Shown: in pieces, positions 6,838-34,436 of the stretch
How the letters are laid out: each line of letters starts with the position of its first letter
Numbering within the stretch: position 1 is the stretch's first letter
Sequence record: MN384978.1
Source of the DNA: Escherichia phage vB_EcolP_P433.1
Reading direction: 5' to 3' (one strand)
Length of the DNA stretch: 43,865 nt
The notes under the pieces: generated by a model
Databases searched by the model: none
What the model saw: only the letters and a program-made list of their open reading frames with translations
Told to the model about the DNA's origin: nothing
Translations under genes and position numbers: made by a program

Positions 6838-6860
6838 CCCTCCTATAGTGTCCAGTAAAT
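6838..6860 (-). promoter_or_regulatory. phage RNAP promoter ATTTACTGGACACTATAGGAGGG
   Basis: Read as reverse complement on the plus strand; 23-nt match to the SP6-type core GACACTATAG; upstream of the first tailspike gene. Confidence 0.75.
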
Positions 6861-6889: not shown

Positions 6890-7087
6890 TTAATTGTATC
6901 CGCGTTCTAGCGAAAGAATGTACAAACCTAATTTTGTAGCGTCAGGCTTACTGAAGCAGACCTTATCGTCCACCTCGTAAACTGCCGTCAGCGTCGGCTT
7001 CAGTGGCCTTACCTTTGGAGTCTCTGGTAACTCCGTCTGACACCCTGAAGTGATCAGCGAACCAATCAGCAGGGTTGTCGCTAGCAT
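6890..7087 (-). CDS. small lipoprotein, candidate o-spanin (65 aa from the internal ATG)
   Basis: MLATTLLIGSLITSGC is a signal peptide plus lipobox-like Cys, followed by a Pro-rich stretch (LPETPKVRPLKPT); GAGG RBS before the ATG at 7087; lies in a different frame overlapping ORF 6963-7184. Confidence 0.4.
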   Translation of the reverse strand: MLATTLLIGSLITSGCQTELPETPKVRPLKPTLTAVYEVDDKVCFSKPDATKLGLYILSLERGYN

Positions 7088-7176
7088 GATTCGCCTCACT
7101 CTGTGCCTCCTTCTCTTCCTTCTTCTTCTTAGCGGCAAGCAGCAGACCAATAAGGCCTGCCAATAACTCAAGCACC

Positions 7177-7326
7177 TTATTCACAAGTGATTACTTGGCA
7201 TACCACGTCAGTGACGGAACCTTCCGTACCTTCACCAAGGTCTACACCAAGACCTACAGAGACAAGTGCAATCACCAGTGCAATCAATGCACCTACCACC
7301 TTCTTAGACTTAAACAGCTTTTTCAT
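7177..7326 (-). CDS. small membrane protein (49 aa, MKKLFKSKKVVGALIALVIALVSVGLGVDL...), possible holin/antiholin or spanin N-terminal part
   Basis: Not in the ORF track; ATG at 7326 preceded by AGGGAG RBS; one clear transmembrane helix; immediately downstream of the endolysin gene. Confidence 0.4.
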   Translation of the reverse strand: MKKLFKSKKVVGALIALVIALVSVGLGVDLGEGTEGSVTDVVCQVITCE

Positions 7327-7434
7327 TGCATCTCCCTTTCCATTGAGCTAGCAAATCCGAGTAGTTCTGCCAATCCTCATAGTTACCTGCCTCGGCAGCT
7401 TGAGCAACCATGCGCTCGCACCATTCAATACATC

Positions 7435-7797
7435 TTACCATCGTGCACACCCATCACGTACATCAATATGGGTGAAGGAATTATACTTACCAATACCATA
7501 CTTGCCTTGGTATTTACTAGTAAGATACTTATGCACTTCAGATGGTGAGATGCCAGACACTTTAATATCAGCAGCCTTACCAGTAAGATGCATAGAGTTC
7601 TTGGCCCCGCCCACCTTAGCATTGTGCTTGGCACAGCGATGACCAGAGGTAATAACCACAGGAGCACCAAAGTGCTCACGAACATCTGTGACTACCTGTA
7701 GTAACTCAGCATCAACAGTGGATGTACCGCACCCACAACGGCAAGCGAACTCTTTACGCTTGAAGTATTTGTTAAGCACTATACTACTCCTAGGCAT
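7435..7797 (-). CDS. endolysin, peptidase M15 (zinc D-Ala-D-Ala carboxypeptidase-like) family
   Basis: FKRKEFACRCGCG...ITSGHRCAKHNAKVGGAKNSMHLTGKAADI matches the Peptidase_M15_3 signature. Confidence 0.8.
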   Translation of the reverse strand: MPRSSIVLNKYFKRKEFACRCGCGTSTVDAELLQVVTDVREHFGAPVVITSGHRCAKHNAKVGGAKNSMHLTGKAADIKVSGISPSEVHKYLTSKYQGKYGIGKYNSFTHIDVRDGCARW

Positions 7798-7830: not shown

Positions 7831-8118
7831 TCACTCAGCGGGGGTAACAGCAGTTACTTCCATGGTAGTGGCATCCCATGGTGACTCAGGCAGTGCATCT
7901 CGTGCTACAGCGATATACAGCGAACCCTCTGCTTTCTTCACAGCAACCATGGCACCTTTTTGTTTACCAGAAAGGTGGTGGATGTTAATCGGGTGCGCTT
8001 TAGATTTAAGGTCTGCCTCTGCTACCACCGGTAATGGCAGTGCAGTTGCAATAGTTTGAACATCCTTAACACGGAAGGATTGCCCGGTTACAGTGTTTGC
8101 ATCTCCATACTTAGCCAT
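7831..8118 (-). CDS. hypothetical protein (96 aa)
   Basis: Start placed at the internal ATG at 8118 (MAKYGDANTV) because of the AAGAGGAG RBS; track ORF extended to 8199. Confidence 0.45.
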   Translation of the reverse strand: MAKYGDANTVTGQSFRVKDVQTIATALPLPVVAEADLKSKAHPINIHHLSGKQKGAMVAVKKAEGSLYIAVARDALPESPWDATTMEVTAVTPAE

Positions 8119-8134
8119 ATCTATTCTCCTCTTA

Positions 8135-8416
8135 TTATACTGGAACAATACTTTCTGCTGTCTTTGTCTGATCCCACTCACTTGTAGGTCCACTTCCACG
8201 AGACAACATCAGCACTCCCTCTTCTGTTACAATCATAGCTCCAATTTGCTTACCAGACTTTGTTGTGTCATTAATAACACTAGCTTGCTTTGCTGGATTA
8301 TATAAGGCATTATCAGTGTTAACACTTGGAACCATTAAGTGTTCACTAACTGGTTGTACCTGTTTTCTGTCATATCGGCCTGTAAGTGGCTGATTACTGT
8401 ATTCGTTAGCCATCAT
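8135..8416 (-). CDS. hypothetical protein (93 aa)
   Basis: ATG at 8416 with TAGGAG RBS; first gene downstream of the promoter at 8548-8570. Confidence 0.45.
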   Translation of the reverse strand: MMANEYSNQPLTGRYDRKQVQPVSEHLMVPSVNTDNALYNPAKQASVINDTTKSGKQIGAMIVTEEGVLMLSRGSGPTSEWDQTKTAESIVPV

Positions 8417-8547: not shown

Positions 8548-8570
8548 TCCTTCTATAGTGTCCAGTAATT
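8548..8570 (-). promoter_or_regulatory. phage RNAP promoter AATTACTGGACACTATAGAAGGA
   Basis: Read as reverse complement; overlaps the terL stop codon; followed by a 130-nt AT-rich leader. Confidence 0.7.
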
Positions 8571-9300
8571 AATAAGTCCTTGAAATCCTTGCAGAAATGG
8601 TGTTTCGATTGGAAGACTTACTCCGGTAATTTTGCCCATACACTCGCCGCTGCATCGCCACAGAAGTGTTGGTTACTTTTCGCTCAGTCCCGTAATCTCC
8701 ATAGAGCATGGCCCTGCGGAGGTGAGGTGTGTTCATAGCTTGGATGTAATCGCGCATCTCTTGCGCTCTGAGGCGATTAATCCGTGTAACCTCATCATAG
8801 TCTATCTGAGAAGTTAATTGCCGTATAGCGCCGTACAGAGCGTCTAAGCGGTCATCGTGCCGGAGGCTGTTCTTCTCGATCGTGATGTTCGACATTTGAT
8901 TGAAAAGGCTATAGGACATGCGTAGCTCAAGCGGATAGTTCTGTACTGACTCAAAGTCAGACTTGACCATCTCAGCATTGAAGATGAGCCTGTGGGCCGC
9001 CATGAGTGGCTCCAGTGTCTCAATGATACGCAACTCTTTCTGTCCTGTGGCGTAATCCTCTTCCAGCGTTACAGGCCACTCTCGTTCAAAGTACGGCTTA
9101 ATTACGGCCTCAAACGCGCCATGACCGAAGTTTTTCTCTATGAATACCTCTTTAACACCCGCCTGCTTTGCGGACTGCACAATGCGATTCAGGGACGATT
9201 CGCGGTATCCACCCGGTACACCGAAGCACTGATACACGTAAATGAATGTGCCGTGCAGGAAGACAATCGCTACACCCGTTTCGTCCCCGTTCTTACCTCC
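8569..9300 (-). CDS. terL: terminase large subunit, exon 2 (nuclease domain, 243 aa)
   Basis: Frame begins GGKNGDETGVAIVFLHG, i.e. mid-way through the conserved nuclease motif, with no ATG or RBS of its own; in frame with exon 1 if the 9301-10046 insert is spliced out. Confidence 0.7.
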   Translation of the reverse strand, partial: GGKNGDETGVAIVFLHGTFIYVYQCFGVPGGYRESSLNRIVQSAKQAGVKEVFIEKNFGHGAFEAVIKPYFEREWPVTLEEDYATGQKELRIIETLEPLMAAHRLIFNAEMVKSDFESVQNYPLELRMSYSLFNQMSNITIEKNSLRHDDRLDALYGAIRQLTSQIDYDEVTRINRLRAQEMRDYIQAMNTPHLRRAMLYGDYGTERKVTNTSVAMQRRVYGQNYRSKSSNRNTISARISRTY

Positions 9301-9826
9301 CGGTTTGAACGTGACGTGCGAGCCAACCCTTGTGGTGTTTACGCAAACCACGTGCCACCTTACGCATATTCTGAGGTGTTAGGTTGTGCTCTTTACAGAA
9401 GTCAGTAATGCAAGTTACAAGAAACTCTTCACCATCTGGAGAAGTGAATATGTAATCTTTGCCAGTACCTTTGTTGTAAGGTGTCATGCCTTTCTTGAAC
9501 TCAGTAGCAACAGACAAGTGCTGTCCTTTCTTTATTTCAGTGGCAATACTTATGCGTTCACCTTTCTCGATGTTACCTGCTTTGCGATAACCACCTTTAC
9601 CCTTATTCCAACCAATGTTGTCATGTGGGCGTAGCTTTTCTTCTAGTGCATAACACTCTTCTTTGCTACCAGTGAATAAGATAACGTACTCGCGGCCATC
9701 ACAAAGACGGCCTGCGCACTTGTGCTCTCTCATACGCTTCTTAATATCGGAGGTTACACCAATATAACCTTGCATTACATCAGTTTCACCAACAACACGA
9801 ATATGATAAACTTTATGCTCTGTCAT
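9293..9826 (-). CDS. GIY-YIG homing endonuclease (177 aa) encoded inside the terL intron
   Basis: KVYHIRVV...GYIGVT...RMREH GIY-YIG module at the N-terminus; NUMOD3-like repeats (ISIATEIKKGQHLSVATEFKKG); AGGGAG RBS before the ATG at 9826; stop codon lies 8 nt inside terL exon 2. Confidence 0.8.
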   Translation of the reverse strand: MTEHKVYHIRVVGETDVMQGYIGVTSDIKKRMREHKCAGRLCDGREYVILFTGSKEECYALEEKLRPHDNIGWNKGKGGYRKAGNIEKGERISIATEIKKGQHLSVATEFKKGMTPYNKGTGKDYIFTSPDGEEFLVTCITDFCKEHNLTPQNMRKVARGLRKHHKGWLARHVQTGR

Positions 9827-10046
9827 ATTTAACTCCCTTCAATTGTTACGTTAATTCGCTACTTTAACTTCCACTAGTCACCTAGTGGGTCGGACTATAT
9901 CTTAGGCTTGCGCCTCCCTCTGTTTCAGACCGCTTGGCCTTACAGTTAGTCTCTACACGTTCCTATCATTGCAACAGGCTTCGCTCGGTATTGTCTCAGT
10001 GAGAGTTCCACCGAATTAAGAGGGTTTTACGCTGGCAGAGGTGTTT
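9301..10046 (-). mobile_element. putative group I intron (746 nt) interrupting terL
   Basis: P1 pairing between exon end GCUGGU and internal guide GCCAGC; P10 pairing between exon-2 start GGAGG and CCUCU; terminal G at 9301; R-like AGAGACUAACUG (rc of 9943-9954) and S-like AAGAUAUAGUCC (rc of 9891-9902) core elements; splicing restores one 632-aa terminase frame. Confidence 0.65.
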
Positions 10047-11213
10047 ACCAGCAGGGTCAATATACATAATCTTACGGGTAACAGCACCCCATTCATACGG
10101 TCGGGCCACAGGCCGATACATGACATCTGTAGGCTTATTGCCATACTTCGGTGCGTCGCCAATGATGTTAATAGAATCATTGCTCCACGTAGGCATCACA
10201 GGAACTTCCTCTGTACCGAATGAAGTGAAGATGAGGTTGTTCAAGCGAAGTGGGTAGCGGTCAGCGTCCATCATGCGAGTGTTAAGCATAAACTGAAGCT
10301 GGAACTTAGCCGCACCCTGCGATATTTCCTTCTCGATCAGGACATCATCATCATACATTTCAGGTGCACAAGGAGCACCACTGTTACCGTCTAACCCATA
10401 ACCAGAGCGAAGTGCTGGGTTATCCTTCATATCCTGCACAATCATAGGCGCAAGGAAGTCACCATAGCATTGCTCCTGCTCCACTGAAGGGTAACGTGCA
10501 GTCCAGATACGAACAGAGTAACCACGAGCAGGTAAGTTATTGTAGATAGAGTTTACGTTCTGAGGTGTACCAAGGTAGATAATATCACCAAACTGGTTGA
10601 TAGATTCAAACTCTTTGGTCAATTCCTCAAGTAAGGCACGGCCTGCTGCTGTACGAGCATTCTGCATCGACTCAACGTCATCTGCAAGGATGATATCTGC
10701 ACGAGCACCCTGCATGCCTGCTTCGATTGAATAGCAGGATACAGAAGGTGACTTATCGCTACCACGTAAAGTGTAGTGAATCTCGAATGCCTTAACGGAT
10801 GCACGGTCTCCTGCGTAAATATCCGGTAACATAAACTCAAGGAAGTCTAAGCCACGAAAGATTTTAACTACCCAACCTGCGATTTCCTCTGCTCGCTTGG
10901 CGTTTTGGGATACAACCATTATACGCTTATGCGGTTCATGGATAATACGGAATACCGTATAGATTGCTGATAGTGTTGTCTTAGCGATACCACGAGGCGC
11001 TTCGATGAGTCGATACTTGTGTCCGTAGAATAGGAACTTCAAGATATCAGCCTGCATACGAATCAGATGAGGGTTGCCTGCAATCAAGTTATGAATAACT
11101 GTGTCTGCAAAGAGAAGCAAACCTTCCGCTGTATAGGGAAAGGTCTGCTGTAGTTCCTGTAGCATCTCCCATCTGGCAAGAGCCTCCGCTTGTGATTCTC
11201 TTGCCTTAGCCAT
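10047..11213 (-). CDS. terL: terminase large subunit, exon 1 (ATPase domain, 389 aa)
   Basis: Walker A PRGIAKTT and Walker B DIILADDVE; ends ...KIMYIDPAG at the proposed 5' splice site; the track ORF continues 16 codons into the intron before a stop at 9996. Confidence 0.75.
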
Positions 11214-11515
11214 TAATTATCCTCTTTTGTAAACTGAATGATCTTGCCACTAGATGCCTCTCGGATAGCCTTGAGACGCTTAGATAGCTTGGACTCTTCC
11301 TGCTGTGCAGCAGGTGTAGCTGTAATTCCATTATCAAGAACCCACTTACACATGGCACCAATGTCCTTACCGGATACTAAGTGTAGTGCTGCATCTGGGT
11401 CTTCTTCTATAGTGTCCAGTATTGCCTGTGCTTTCTTATTAAAGATCTTGGTAATAGCACCATGCAGAATGCCAACCTCATCTTCTGTAGCTGCATGTTT
11501 ATTGTGTACGCTCAC
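11213..11515 (-). CDS. terS: putative terminase small subunit (100 aa)
   Basis: Assigned by position between holin and terL as in T7 (gene 18); GTG start with AGGAGA RBS; no motif-level support. Confidence 0.5.
   Translation of the reverse strand: MSVHNKHAATEDEVGILHGAITKIFNKKAQAILDTIEEDPDAALHLVSGKDIGAMCKWVLDNGITATPAAQQEESKLSKRLKAIREASSGKIIQFTKEDN
11402..11424 (-). promoter_or_regulatory. weak phage-promoter-like sequence CAATACTGGACACTATAGAAGAA inside terS
   Basis: Matches the consensus from -13 to +6 but diverges at -17 to -15; lies inside the coding sequence. Confidence 0.4.
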
Positions 11516-11693
11516 GTTTATCTCTCCTAGCTTTGTATTTTACATAAAACCAATCGCCAATTTGTAATACAGTATAAATGAATGTAGCTATAAGAACCCA
11601 ATCATTCCAACTGATACCGAGGAAGTACCCACCTGAGACTAATGCAGGTGGCGCAAGCTTCACACCACTATCTACCAGTTCGGAGTTAATCAT
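11499..11693 (-). CDS. holin, T7 gp17.5-like (64 aa)
   Basis: GISWNDWVLIATFIYTVLQIG resembles T7 gp17.5 (GLSLNEWFYVAAIAYTVVQIG as remembered); single transmembrane helix with a basic C-terminus; same position as T7 gene 17.5. Confidence 0.7.
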   Translation of the reverse strand: MINSELVDSGVKLAPPALVSGGYFLGISWNDWVLIATFIYTVLQIGDWFYVKYKARRDKRERTQ

Positions 11694-11701
11694 TGCACCT
11701 C

Positions 11702-12664
11702 CTATGCAGTAATCACGTTAACAGACATGTGGCAAGCAGGTACACCCTCAGAGAAAGTAATTACACTACCATTAATTTGATATGTAGACATAGGTTGGAA
11801 TAACCCATCTAAGTACACATCAATGTGCTTGAATGCCACTCCTAAGTTCACTTCAGTAGTGCCTTCCTCTAAATCTTTATTGAACTCGATGAAGGCATTA
11901 GGTGCTGAGGTTGCAGTGCGACTACCAATAAGTACGTAGACTTCTGTGCCTCGCATAAGTGGTTCAGCAAAAGTAATAGTGCTATTAGCCACAGTAACAG
12001 CCTTGGCTAGTTCATGCTGCAAAACACCATTCAGGTACACTAAGGCATCATCAAAAATATAAGGTGGGCGAATTACAGTCTCGCCACCTGCCGCAGTAGT
12101 AAACCAAGGTACGGTTCGGTGTGCAATACCAGAGGTCATGCCTGCTTTCAATCCAGCAATAGCCAAATCTTGCTGGTTGTTCCAGTCTGTATGCTTCTTG
12201 TCAATGGCATCAAGTTGTCCCAAGTTGACTGCATCACCCGGCTCTGTGCCATCTGCAAGGTTTGTAATCTTATTACCACCCCATGACACGTTCTGCTTAA
12301 CGAAGTAGCCTTCTGGGTAAAACCCATCTAGAATCTCTTGGGTTATCTCTAGGATATGAATAAAGGAGCCATTTAAGGACTTCATATCCAGAGCAACACC
12401 GCGGTCAAACTCTGCATATGGGTACTCCTTTTGCACCACCCTTCGAATGCGGAACTTCAAACCCTCAACTGGTGCTACATCAAAAGTAATCTGGTGTGTG
12501 CCAGATAATTGCCAACCAGATGTGATCTCTTCCCAAGATCCAGCTTGGAAAAATTCTACTGTCACATCTGAGGCACGAAGATAACCTTTCTCCCTACCAG
12601 CAAAGCTAAAGGGATAGGTGACTTGCGTACCATCTGCTGTGTGTTCTGTGAAAGTATAACTCAT
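11702..12664 (-). CDS. tail-fibre adaptor protein with T7 gp17 N-terminal-like domain (320 aa)
   Basis: Motif GGNKITNLADGTEPGDAVNLGQL typical of podophage fibre N-terminal domains; follows the internal virion proteins; too short to be a full fibre, so probably anchors the two tailspikes. Confidence 0.7.
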   Translation of the reverse strand: MSYTFTEHTADGTQVTYPFSFAGREKGYLRASDVTVEFFQAGSWEEITSGWQLSGTHQITFDVAPVEGLKFRIRRVVQKEYPYAEFDRGVALDMKSLNGSFIHILEITQEILDGFYPEGYFVKQNVSWGGNKITNLADGTEPGDAVNLGQLDAIDKKHTDWNNQQDLAIAGLKAGMTSGIAHRTVPWFTTAAGGETVIRPPYIFDDALVYLNGVLQHELAKAVTVANSTITFAEPLMRGTEVYVLIGSRTATSAPNAFIEFNKDLEEGTTEVNLGVAFKHIDVYLDGLFQPMSTYQINGSVITFSEGVPACHMSVNVITA

Positions 12665-24652: not shown

Positions 24653-24675
24653 CCCTTCTATAGTGTCCAGTAAAT
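24653..24675 (-). promoter_or_regulatory. phage RNAP promoter ATTTACTGGACACTATAGAAGGG (capsid promoter)
   Basis: Read as reverse complement; lies between the scaffold and capsid genes. Confidence 0.8.
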
Positions 24676-28178: not shown

Positions 28179-29115
28179 GTCTTAATTCTCCCGCTTTGGG
28201 CAGACGAATGTTGCCCTTGCTTGAATCCTGAAGACCTTTGACTTCAAAGATTTTACCAATGACATTCAATCGCCCGCCATGTTTAATATCGTGGAACATC
28301 TGTTCTGCATCTGCATGAGTCCACCCTTTACCTAACATAGCTTTGATTGTCTTGCCTCCTTTCCATTTGAAAATGAGGTTAGCTACCTTACCTTTGTACT
28401 TACCTTTGCCCTCTTCAAAGCCAATACAAGTAAGGTCATAAGTTACCTTACGTACTTCTTTAGTCTGACGATAACCTTTATGGCCTGCTTCATAGTCGCA
28501 GTCTAGTTTAAACACAGCACCCTCTCGGCCTGCGTCTATTTGCTCTTGCGCAAACGCTTCAACTTCTCGCTCATTATGGCAAGGAGTAATAGGAAGGATA
28601 GCGTTGCACCCGCTAAGATGAGCGCCGATGCGACGATGTAAAGCATCGTAACGTTTGAGATAAGAAACATCAGTGAATCCATCATGGAATGCCTTAATAG
28701 TTAACATATCGAAGAAGTCGATATACAGGTTGTCTTTAATCTGCTGGCCTATGAAATCAAGTGGCTCTGTGCGATTAGGGTTTACCACTCCTGATAGAGC
28801 TTCAAGATAAATATCAACAGCCATAGATTGCAACTCACCAAGATACAGCCCGACAGGAAATACACTAAATGTCTTTTCCAAGGCTTCAACATTTGCGAGC
28901 TTCTTACCAGTACGACCAAAGATGGCAACAACACCATCACTACGGACCACAACAGCACTGAATATTCCATCACGTTTCACCTGTGCATAACATGGAAATG
29001 TAAGTTTCTTCTCAGGTACTTCACCGCGATGTTTCACCAGCATGAATGGGTGATTGCGGTGGTCTTCTGGAAGACCTAAGAACTCAAAGATATTCATATC
29101 AAATATCCTCATCAA
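28150..29115 (-). CDS. ATP-dependent DNA ligase (321 aa)
   Basis: Adenylation motif I KxDG present as VKRDGIF; size comparable to T7 gene 1.3 ligase. Confidence 0.8.
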   Translation of the reverse strand: MMRIFDMNIFEFLGLPEDHRNHPFMLVKHRGEVPEKKLTFPCYAQVKRDGIFSAVVVRSDGVVAIFGRTGKKLANVEALEKTFSVFPVGLYLGELQSMAVDIYLEALSGVVNPNRTEPLDFIGQQIKDNLYIDFFDMLTIKAFHDGFTDVSYLKRYDALHRRIGAHLSGCNAILPITPCHNEREVEAFAQEQIDAGREGAVFKLDCDYEAGHKGYRQTKEVRKVTYDLTCIGFEEGKGKYKGKVANLIFKWKGGKTIKAMLGKGWTHADAEQMFHDIKHGGRLNVIGKIFEVKGLQDSSKGNIRLPKAGELRHDKDEPDFF

Positions 29116-32675: not shown

Positions 32676-32698
32676 CTCTTCTATAGTGTCCAGTAAAT
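32676..32698 (-). promoter_or_regulatory. phage RNAP promoter ATTTACTGGACACTATAGAAGAG
   Basis: Read as reverse complement; preceded 16 bp upstream by the palindrome at 32714-32729. Confidence 0.75.
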
Positions 32699-34413: not shown

Positions 34414-34436
34414 TCCTTCTATAGTGTCCAGTAAAT
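34414..34436 (-). promoter_or_regulatory. phage RNAP promoter ATTTACTGGACACTATAGAAGGA
   Basis: Read as reverse complement; about 70 nt downstream of the DNA polymerase stop. Confidence 0.75.

Follow-up and report, generated by a model that had tools for sequence, protein, structure and literature searches.

The 73-codon reading frame x73 in the lysis gene cluster of Escherichia phage vB_EcolP_P433.1 is under purifying selection, and its product was found together with a lipo69-type lipoprotein in every examined lineage that has such a lipoprotein. The selection on this frame, its membership of a family of at least 68 clusters, and the pairing itself, which occurs beside five endolysin types and involves a protein predicted not to span the membrane, are new here. 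Together with the membrane protein x49, x73 and the lipoprotein lipo69 may form a three-gene module for disruption of the outer membrane; we give this reading a probability of about 0.4.

Spanins are regarded as the general means by which tailed phages break through the outer membrane of Gram-negative hosts, and pipelines for annotation expect an i-spanin with a transmembrane domain (TMD) together with a lipoprotein. In the SP6/K1E group, which includes widely used therapeutic and model phages, the candidate pair is too short for the periplasm by the curators' own judgement, and the same 49-aa protein is called holin in some databases and i-spanin in another, two names that are incompatible. 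Labels such as “Rz-like spanin” and “holin” amount to guesses in these genomes. With x73 established as a real gene, paired with every such lipoprotein examined and not membrane-spanning, the question of its role in lysis becomes testable. Taken merely as one more K1E-like genome, the window would be an ordinary finding.

The window, i.e., the whole stretch of 43,865 nucleotides that was analyzed, is that of a Vectrevirus (K1E/K1-5-like). All cassette ORFs described below lie on the minus strand and are intact in 30 distinct relatives, at nucleotide identities as low as ~67%. Since each of them also shows variation biased to the third codon position and a pN/pS of 0.14-0.40 in its own frame, they are more than chance ORFs; the cassette genes are real, conserved, and linked. 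The same gene order was found in K1E, K1-5, SP6, Proteus, Klebsiella, Gajwadongvirus, and Aeromonas phages. The region represents the usual set of late lysis genes in SP6/K1E-like coliphages, ordinary for the group and no peculiarity of the window, and the interpretation of its small two-component “spanin” pair, catalogued since 2018 (SpaninDB), is not new. Pfam and NCBIfam contain no family for x46, x49, x73, or lipo69, and literature searches for experiments on x49, x73, or lipo69 returned none, only genome reports.

Lysis functions had been assigned to two loci in the initial annotation, and both are supported by Pfam. The T7 gp17.5-type holin (64 aa, 11499..11693, minus strand) matched Phage_holin_2_2 (PF10746) at E 4.8e-25, with 87.5 bits against a cutoff of 25.4, and PHROG 920 (holin). 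Its proposed T7-like position was confirmed by Pfam matches of the neighbours, the tail-fibre adaptor with a T7-tail-fibre N-domain (Phage_T7_tail, 11702-12664) and terS (DNA_Packaging_2, 11213-11515). The endolysin (120 aa, 7435..7797, minus strand), equivalent to K1E gp43, was correctly recognized as an M15 peptidase: Peptidase_M15_3 (PF08291) matched at E 4.4e-35 over profile positions 1-108 of 108, with 120.5 bits against a cutoff of 23.2, and PHROG 894 (endolysin) at E 9.5e-47. It carries no signal or SAR sequence. Separate loci for holin and endolysin are normal in T7/SP6-like phages.

The endolysin gene does lie after terL, as described earlier, with two more small ORFs and a promoter-like site between them. 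This site (AATTACTGGACACTATAG, 8553..8570, minus strand) resembles a phage RNA-polymerase promoter by consensus match and would head the transcription unit of the cassette. Such sites numbered 11 as matches to the window's own consensus, with 0.05 expected by chance. The next one, an exact consensus match at 6843..6860 (minus strand), lies between the lipoprotein stop and the tailspike gene and marks the downstream edge of the cassette; in SP6-like phages, the tailspike gene comes directly after the lipo69 gene. As terS and terL overlap by one base, the window has nothing in the T7 18.5/18.7 slot, and a search of the rest of the window found no canonical spanin or i-spanin.

Between the endolysin and x49, a small ORF missed at first (x46, 7310..7450, minus strand) encodes a 46-aa soluble protein with a CxxxC motif that matched PHROG 1312 (unknown function) at E 1.6e-18. 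It overlaps the endolysin end and the x49 start, varies at codon positions 1/2/3 by 38/28/61 with a pN/pS of 0.40, and has homologs in the corresponding position in Proteus, Gajwadongvirus, and Aeromonas phages.

The 49-aa protein x49 (7177..7326, minus strand) is predicted from hydropathy and charge to be a single-pass inner-membrane protein, and it matched PHROG 4712 at E 8.4e-27. Its ORF, its ribosome-binding site (GGGAG, 5 nt before the ATG), and its one predicted TMD agree with the initial annotation, which had called it unlisted; it is in fact annotated in K1E, K1-5, and SP6. Five Lys occur among the first nine residues, and the TMD comprises 19 uncharged hydrophobic residues (KD 2.78) with five K/R on its N-terminal and none on its C-terminal side, which predicts an N-in/C-out (type II) topology. 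An N-terminal TMD with this topology is what an i-spanin would show. The predicted periplasmic tail has ~21 acidic residues and ends in a conserved Cx4C, whose C43 and C48 are invariant, also in Vibrio phage ICP3, so that with C48 of lipo69 both members of the candidate pair would carry periplasmic Cys; a two-component spanin is expected to have at least one, for intermolecular disulfides. The long periplasmic domain of an i-spanin is missing, as the ~21 residues include no predicted coiled coil. SpaninDB marks x49 as “Too small?” and its combination with lipo69, at 71 periplasmic residues, as “Too short” (Kongari et al. 2018, PMC6139136).

The role of x49 is disputed between a candidate mini i-spanin, as named by SpaninDB, and a holin-family protein, as named by RefSeq and PHROGs (PHROG 4712). 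Its profile aligned with the N-terminal half of a 2-TMD holin-like family over 30 columns (hhalign 81%, E 1.2e-5), cross-matches to other PHROGs were weak, and no Pfam holin matched. The acidic C-terminus is predicted to be periplasmic, whereas holins typically have a charged cytoplasmic one. The upstream membrane proteins vary by lineage and several resemble class II holins, which suggests that x49 may be holin-derived and not a spanin subunit.

The overlapping frame x73 (73 aa, 6963..7184, minus strand; PHROG 9219) is identified by its codon periodicity and pN/pS. As noted earlier, it overlaps the lipoprotein ORF. Its GTG start and its lack of a Shine-Dalgarno sequence had left it in doubt. 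This doubt is removed by purifying selection in its own frame and by its coupling to x49. In the non-overlapped part, pN/pS was 0.39 in the x73 frame compared with 1.18 and 3.96 in the other frames, and variation at the three codon positions was 25/11/44. The x73 start overlaps the x49 stop by 8 nt (GTGAATAA), and an overlap with the stop of the upstream membrane-protein gene is found in most lineages, taking the form TAATG in ECBP5. x73 is a real gene, translationally coupled to x49. Its homolog is annotated as gp48 in SP6, and the gene is mostly unannotated elsewhere.

The x73 family spans at least 68 clusters (68 cluster representatives at E<=1e-3), with a layout of an amphipathic N-terminal helix, a K/E-rich helix, a conserved DNPxDWFxDHF motif, and a disordered tail that is unconstrained (pN/pS 1.44). 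The AF2 model places helices at 4-34 and 38-45 with low confidence, and pLDDT was 59-61 for the models of x73 and lipo69. The N-terminal helix had been described as hydrophobic, which did not hold: most members have an amphipathic one. In the window, uncharged residues run for 12 at most, with four K after the helix; the longest such run has a median of 10 residues among 62 representatives, 58 of which have fewer than 17 consecutive uncharged residues ahead of the conserved motif. The other four reach at least 17, two of them as artefacts. The helix is therefore not TMD-like across the family, and x73 is not a canonical i-spanin, as it lacks the N-terminal TMD with type II topology. Its gene is placed as that of an i-spanin would be, upstream of and overlapping the o-spanin gene in a lysis cassette. 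Neither a signal peptide nor a TMD is present and the positive-inside rule puts the C-terminal part in the cytoplasm, so a periplasmic role of x73 would need holin-dependent release. It contains no Cys and no long coiled coil, and comparison with the PHROGs annotated as spanins gave no similarity.

Two ways of joining x49 and x73 into one protein were rejected. The only natural x49::x73 fusion found (P0084, 95 aa) had at first suggested a split i-spanin in the manner of a Rosetta stone, but it occurs once, on a single 1.8-kb contig. Close relatives have two separate genes that are 100% identical over each half, and the fusion probably reflects a deletion or an assembly artefact. A programmed frameshift from x49 into x73 would meet a stop in the x73 frame three codons ahead of the GTG, the sequence shows no slippery site, and the frame relation varies from +1 in SP6-like phages to +2 in ECBP5.

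The lipoprotein lipo69 (6890..7099, minus strand), which corresponds to K1E gp45, is a predicted outer-membrane lipoprotein precursor of the o-spanin type and matched PHROG 8971 (“Rz-like spanin”) at E 8.9e-37. The signal peptide, lipobox Cys, and Pro-rich character claimed for the ORF at 6890-7087 were upheld, and its start was revised. Translation most likely begins at the conserved start GTG 7099, with AAGGAGG 6 nt upstream, which gives a precursor of 69 aa, not 65. SP6 has ATG at this position, and the codon at ATG 7087 is not conserved, reading W, V, or T in SP6, L016, and L031. The precursor passes a PROSITE-type lipobox pattern (MRRIMLATTLLIGSLITSG|C, LITSG|C), the signal expected of an o-spanin; the lipobox is invariant in alignments of relatives, and no other ORF in the window has a credible one. 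The mature part of 50 aa consists of a Pro-rich linker (5 Pro in the precursor) and a strongly conserved C-terminal domain with one Cys, C48, which is invariant in close relatives and missing from the distant lipoproteins of X29, L044, and L039. pN/pS was 0.14 in the unique part. A unimolecular spanin of the T1 gp11 type was rejected, since lipo69 has no C-terminal TMD and its sole hydrophobic segment is the signal peptide; the C-terminal LGLYILSL stretch comprises 8 residues only.

Co-occurrence was assessed in a sample of about a dozen lineages rather than in a census. It comprised SP6-like phages, three Gajwadongvirus-type phages, Aeromonas phage Aer_P220, Vibrio phages X29 and 236O40-1, contigs from eight distant x73 relatives, and the singleton L041. 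In these lineages the x73-lipoprotein pair always adjoins the endolysin, of which five different types were found. In the window and in most lineages examined, the lipoprotein gene begins within x73, in a different frame. The exception is Vibrio phage X29, where an inserted gene separates the two and both are retained. x73 is missing from ICP3, whose lipoprotein is unrelated and whose x49 homolog abuts the lipoprotein gene exactly in the T7 18.5/18.7 (Rz/Rz1) slot between terS and terL. Some distant cassettes also encode a protein with a TMD plus coiled coil, which could be the real i-spanin there.

In the three-gene module, the cassette would be transcribed from its own phage promoter, beginning with the soluble M15 endolysin and continuing through the overlapping x46, x49, x73, and lipo69. 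Encoded 4 kb upstream, the T7-type holin would open the inner membrane and give the signal-less endolysin access to the cell wall. After export and lipidation at Cys20, lipo69 would be anchored to the outer membrane as the o-spanin-type component, with x49 as the putative inner-membrane component and its short acidic periplasmic tail with the terminal Cx4C. x73, as the co-inherited lipoprotein partner in the Rz gene slot, would be kept at a fixed ratio through coupling to x49 and could supply what the 21-residue x49 tail cannot, namely a link to, or activation of, the lipo69 C-terminal domain; like the endolysin, it may pass the holin lesion to enter the periplasm. Within this scheme, we infer the physical partnerships, the compartment of x73 action, and the membrane-disrupting function itself. 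It is improbable in our estimate that x73 represents a new class of lysis protein, either a soluble TMD-less “connector” in a spanin split into three parts or a membrane-disrupting helix docked to the lipoprotein, that is made in the cytoplasm, released with the endolysin via the holin lesion, and only then joins lipo69 to the x49 stub. If it did, outer-membrane disruption would be licensed by holin triggering itself, beyond cell-wall removal alone.

A minimal two-component “separated” spanin would instead have x49 as i-spanin and lipo69 as o-spanin, with x73 as an unrelated or regulatory passenger overlapping the o-spanin start. The initial annotation had pointed in this direction with a spanin-like cassette and a short inner-membrane partner, which matches the SpaninDB entries for K1-5, K1E, and SP6 and the Center for Phage Technology annotations of LL11 and Premi, as well as being ordinary for the group. 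The type II topology and the two invariant periplasmic Cys of x49 are consistent with it, and in ICP3 and VP4 the Rz/Rz1 slot contains a lipoprotein gene and an x49 homolog but no x73. However, we regard such a pair as rather doubtful: ~21 + 50 periplasmic residues earned the curators' size flags, lipo69-type lipoproteins occur without an x49 homolog but never without x73 in the sample, and the reading would not account for why x73 is so deeply conserved and coupled. The order endolysin, small TM protein, x73, and overlapped lipoprotein in distant phages is that of a classical endolysin-holin-Rz/Rz1 cassette, which would make x73 the Rz-equivalent of lipo69 and x49 a second holin, pinholin, or antiholin beside the T7-type holin. 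The invariance of the x73-lipo69 pair, the holin label and hhalign match of x49, and the 69-aa overlapped i-spanin listed by SpaninDB for UAB_Phi78, the length of the x73 homolog there, fit this assignment. It is nevertheless unlikely given the lack of a TMD in most x73 members, the predicted cytoplasmic C-terminus, the missing Cys and long coiled coil, and the dissimilarity to any spanin-annotated PHROG; the unconstrained tail is at the same end that binds the o-spanin in lambda Rz, and the phage already has a T7-type holin.

A role outside lysis, in which the lipoprotein, and perhaps also x73 and x49, acts in superinfection exclusion or receptor masking like T5 Llp or the Cor family, could be suggested by the position of lipo69 directly upstream of the tailspike gene in SP6-like phages and by periplasmic parts of x49 and lipo69 that are too short for a canonical spanin. 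This is very unlikely, since distant x73-lipoprotein pairs follow five endolysin classes and are not beside tail-fibre genes; the pair adjoins an integrase in X29 and terS in 236O40-1, and linkage to the endolysin is the constant feature.

Among known systems, the cassettes of K1E (gp43-gp45), K1-5 (gp46-gp48), and SP6 (gp46-gp48) have the same genes in the same order as the window, with 86-93% nucleotide identity of K1E and K1-5 over the small-ORF region. The 49-aa, 73-aa, and 69-aa proteins are all present, and the window, another member of this group, shows essentially no difference. In the literature on these cassettes, the treatment of the 73-aa ORF is inconsistent. For K1-5, K1E, and SP6, the 49-aa and 69-aa proteins were classified as a two-component spanin of the “separated” type with the flag “Too small?/Too short”, while for UAB_Phi78 the homolog of the 73-aa protein was chosen as i-spanin instead (Kongari et al. 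2018, PMC6139136).

As in lambda Rz/Rz1 and T7 gp18.5/gp18.7, the lipoprotein has a small Pro-containing mature part, its gene starts inside the upstream gene, out of frame, in a lysis cassette, and there are periplasmic cysteines. T7 gp18.5 has 130-150 aa, an N-terminal TMD, and a long periplasmic coiled coil. Lambda Rz falls in the same size range, with an evident TMD at its N-terminus and an extended periplasmic coiled coil (Kongari 2018). In contrast, the TMD protein of the window has ~21 periplasmic residues and the overlapping x73 has no TMD. Comparison of the window's cassette proteins with the lambda and T7 spanins detected no sequence similarity, and the genes lie after terL, unlike T7 18.5/18.7 between terS and terL.

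The “mini-spanin” pair of Vibrio phages ICP3 and VP4 is also flagged “Too small/Too short” in SpaninDB and consists of a 47-aa inner-membrane protein adjoining a 65-aa lipoprotein. The ICP3 47-aa protein is homologous to x49 (shared GVDL...Cx4C), as established via PHROG 4712, which it matches at E 7e-23; BLASTP between the two gave no match. Unlike in the window, the ICP3/VP4 lipoprotein is unrelated and without a periplasmic Cys, x73 is absent, and the pair occupies the T7 18.5/18.7 slot.

Extra small proteins of lysis cassettes can be strictly required for lysis, as for Lcc6 of LambdaSo (bioRxiv 10.1101/2024.01.23.576932) and for the Mu releasin gp25 (PMC9239132). Lcc6 spans the membrane and acts at the holin step, whereas x73 is not predicted to be a membrane-spanning protein and is genetically tied to a lipoprotein; no homology is claimed. 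The phiKT gp28 disruptin, a small cationic amphipathic podophage protein that takes the place of spanins and is proposed to target the outer membrane without bridging the periplasm (bioRxiv 10.1101/515445), is relevant to a possible action of the x73 amphipathic helix. It is cationic and occurs in a spanin-less phage, whereas x73 has a net charge of ~ -1, which rules out a disruptin-like cationic peptide, and always occurs with a lipoprotein.

The 1.2-kb region is similar to 120 phage records in the sequence search, with the best matches to Vectrevirus phages of Escherichia (K1E, K1-5, and related phages; 86-90% identity), followed by SP6-like Salmonella phages and Klebsiella, Citrobacter, and Proteus phages. 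Its genes are encoded on the minus strand, where 11 sites in the window match ATTTACTGGACACTATAG, the SP6/K1E-type phage RNA-polymerase promoter consensus, with at most three mismatches (0.05 expected by chance). Among them are 24658-24675, 32681-32698, and 34419-34436, as well as 8553-8570 and 6843-6860, which bracket the lysis cassette. Every ORF described in the initial annotation was found. The endolysin (7435-7797, minus strand), assigned there to the M15 peptidases, carries a full-length Peptidase_M15_3 domain (E 4.4e-35), and the supposed T7-type holin beside terS (11499-11693, minus strand) matched Phage_holin_2_2 (E 4.8e-25) with T7-like neighbours, occupying the same position as in T7 between a T7-tail-fibre N-domain protein and terS. 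The identification of the region as a lysis cassette is solid.

Between terL and the endolysin lie one promoter and two extra small ORFs (8135-8416 and 7831-8199, minus strand), whose homologs are noted as a likely duplication in the LL11 record and named "acetyl-CoA acetyltransferase" in RefSeq and other records; for products of only ~93 aa, this name looks like a propagated misannotation. The terL gene is interrupted (ORFs 9996-11213 and 8569-9351, minus strand). A complete group I intron occurs at 9871-10078 on the same strand (Rfam RF00028, 63.6 bits, E 6.5e-15), and a 177-aa ORF downstream of it (9293-9826, minus strand) matched GIY-YIG and an I-HmuI NUMOD-like domain in Pfam, in both cases below threshold. 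K1E has the same layout, annotated as 40.5 (putative homing endonuclease) and 40B, while terL is uninterrupted in K1-5, PSK8, and LL11. In the early or middle region, a 49-aa candidate ORF (28536-28685, minus strand) would encode a protein with a strongly hydrophobic segment, its C-terminus being basic (…SEKLKRLRKSK).

The alignment of the region covered 30 distinct relatives with 67-93% identity to the window. The conserved 46-aa ORF x46 (7310-7450, minus strand; PHROG 1312, unknown function), overlooked in the initial annotation, overlaps the endolysin 3' end and the start of the membrane protein gene x49 (49 aa, 7177-7326), with pN/pS of 0.40 and 0.38, respectively. Between the x49 stop and the start of the lipoprotein gene lipo69 (6890-7099) lie 77 nt in which pooled pN/pS was 0.39 in the frame of x73 (73 aa, 6963-7184) vs 1.18 and 3.96 in the other two, and minimum changes at codon positions 1/2/3 of x73 were 25/11/44 (chi-square p = 3e-5). 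Constraint acts on both frames where x73 overlaps the lipo69 signal peptide (0.36 and 0.63); farther downstream it is absent from the x73 frame (1.44) and the lipo69 frame dominates (0.59), with 0.14 in the unique part of lipo69. In sequence as in length (61-73 aa), the x73 tail is variable. This frame-specific constraint followed by an unconstrained tail marks x73 as a real protein and puts its functional part at roughly residues 1-49. That x46, x49, and x73 are all genuine genes is solid.

The lipo69 ORF passed a PROSITE-type lipobox test, in agreement with the lipoprotein initially proposed. Its start, placed there at ATG 7087 (65 aa), is most probably GTG 7099 (69 aa). AAGGAGG lies 6 nt upstream of this GTG, SP6 carries ATG at its place, the homolog in SpaninDB also has 69 aa, and ATG 7087 is unconserved (W, V, or T in three lineages). 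The polypurine run AAGAAGAAGAAGGAAGAGAAGGAGG (7100-7130, minus strand) codes for KKKKEEKE of x73 and also supplies the AAGGAGG Shine-Dalgarno of lipo69, and thus the same DNA serves as protein code and ribosome-binding site; Gajwadongvirus ECBP5 has an equivalent arrangement, with AAAGAGGAG before its ATG. As a prediction, the assignment of lipo69, the sole lipoprotein candidate in the window, to the o-spanin type is solid.

The GTG start of x73 overlaps the x49 stop (GTGAATAA) and, as first described, has no Shine-Dalgarno sequence. The ECBP5 homolog of x73 begins with ATG and overlaps the x49 homolog at TAATG, which confirms translational coupling in place of a ribosome-binding site of its own. 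When 1.84 billion cluster representatives were searched with a profile, 68 family proteins scored at E<=1e-3, nearly all of 58-95 aa, with an N-terminal helix, a K/E-rich EQ..AQ.EAD stretch, the motif [DN]PxxWFxxHF, and a low-complexity tail. The helix, initially described as hydrophobic, is charged on one face in most members. Among 62 representatives, the longest uncharged run before the motif had a median of 10 residues and reached at least 17 in only four, two of them artefactual sequences. In the window's x73 the run is 12 residues long with KKKK after it, and by the positive-inside rule the C-terminus is therefore predicted to be cytoplasmic; an AF2 model of low overall confidence has helices at 4-34 and 38-45, with the tail disordered. 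x73 thus lacks a predicted TMD, the feature defining an i-spanin, and it showed no similarity to any PHROG annotated as spanin.

An x73 homolog was present in every examined lineage with a lipo69-type lipoprotein and overlapped the lipoprotein start in all but one. The sample, about a dozen lineages and not a census, comprised SP6-like phages, Gajwadongvirus-type ECBP5, MR4, and an Edwardsiella phage, Aeromonas phage Aer_P220, Vibrio phages 236O40-1 and X29, and contigs of eight distant x73 relatives plus the singleton L041 (L037, L039, L041-L046, and L048). X29 has kept both genes despite a reverse-oriented gene between them, with x73 still coupled to the upstream membrane-protein gene. The endolysin varies (M15 peptidase, lytic transglycosylase, Amidase_3, Phage_lysozyme, or DUF5675), as does the small membrane protein upstream (x49, a 2-TMD family, a "TPxxKDD" one-TMD family, or others); thus the constant unit across these lineages is x73 plus the lipo69-type lipoprotein, always adjoining an endolysin.

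Some distant cassettes with this pair also encode proteins of 107, 123, 80, and 56 aa with an N-terminal TMD and a long charged helix or coiled coil (L042 186-509; L051 1129-1500; L046 1941-2183 and 2185-2355). These look like, and could be, canonical i-spanins, in which case x73 coexists with a true i-spanin in such phages. On the TARA metagenome contig L041 (329-616), a 95-aa product, P0084, joins the first ~45 residues of a 2-TMD holin-like protein to an x73 homolog from residue ~20 onward, and the halves match, at 100% identity, two separate proteins of 64 and 69 aa that are common elsewhere.

No canonical i-spanin was found in the 43.9-kb window, and the slot of T7 Rz/Rz1 is empty because terS and terL overlap. 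Favoured at a probability of roughly 0.4 is a three-gene module, in which x49 would serve as the stub in the inner membrane and lipo69 as the anchor in the outer one, with x73 as a cognate factor co-inherited with the lipoprotein. A two-component spanin of x49 and lipo69, as listed in SpaninDB for K1-5, K1E, and SP6 (PMC6139136), is a possible but doubtful alternative. The membrane character and ribosome-binding site ascribed to x49 were borne out, with GGGAG 5 nt before its ATG, five Lys among the first nine residues, an uncharged 19-residue hydrophobic segment, and an acidic ~21-residue tail ending VVCQVITCE. Its PHROG (4712, E 7e-23) and the GVDL...Cx4C pattern are shared by the "mini i-spanin" (47 aa) of the Vibrio phages ICP3 and VP4. 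In ICP3, which has no x73, this homolog directly adjoins the gene of a 65-aa lipoprotein, and the two lie between terS and terL, at the site corresponding to the T7 18.5/18.7 slot. This arrangement supports x49 as a candidate partner of a lipoprotein; the ICP3 lipoprotein is not related to lipo69. The homolog (NC_015159.1, 1765-1908) is absent from the RefSeq annotation, where a 30-aa "orf51" (1767-1859) is given in the wrong frame instead.

Against x49 as the partner stands the alignment of its profile with the N-terminal half of the 2-TMD family (hhalign 81%, E 1.2e-5, 30 columns), which holds the position of x49 in other phages and resembles class II holins, with weak hits to holin entries of PHROGs and Pfam. 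The same match would favour x73 and lipo69 as an overlapped pair beside a holin-family x49, an alternative slightly less probable than the two-component spanin of x49 and lipo69; the lack of a predicted i-spanin TMD in x73 stands against it. That x73 is a soluble connector, released with the endolysin through the holin lesion to complete a split spanin, is improbable; its only direct hint, the P0084 fusion, did not hold up and probably arose in assembly, as a chimera, or by deletion between short AL(L)A repeats. A non-lysis role of lipo69 is very unlikely because the conserved linkage is to endolysins, not to tail genes.

In RefSeq K1E, gp43 is the endolysin, gp44 the holin, and gp45 an Rz-like spanin; x73 is left out there and annotated as gp48 in SP6. 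PHROGs labels x49 as holin (4712) and x73 as unknown (9219), and the Center for Phage Technology genomes LL11 and Premi annotate x49 as i-spanin. In the supplement of Kongari et al. 2018 (PMC6139136), K1-5, K1E, and SP6 have "separated" two-component spanins with the 49-aa protein as i-spanin, flagged "Too small?", the 69-aa lipoprotein as o-spanin, and a combined periplasmic length of 71 marked "Too short". The homologous UAB_Phi78 cassette is entered there as an "overlapped" pair, with a 69-aa i-spanin of the same length as its x73 homolog. Given these entries, the initial reading of an endolysin plus spanin-like cassette is essentially the catalogued one and is partly supported, the partner of lipo69 being as ambiguous as in the catalogues. 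No experimental test of these genes was found in the literature. Within its known phage group, the lysis feature of the window is ordinary. The system with which this group disrupts the outer membrane is an uncharacterised spanin variant, and the evidence for x73 as a conserved, non-transmembrane third gene is a useful, testable addition.
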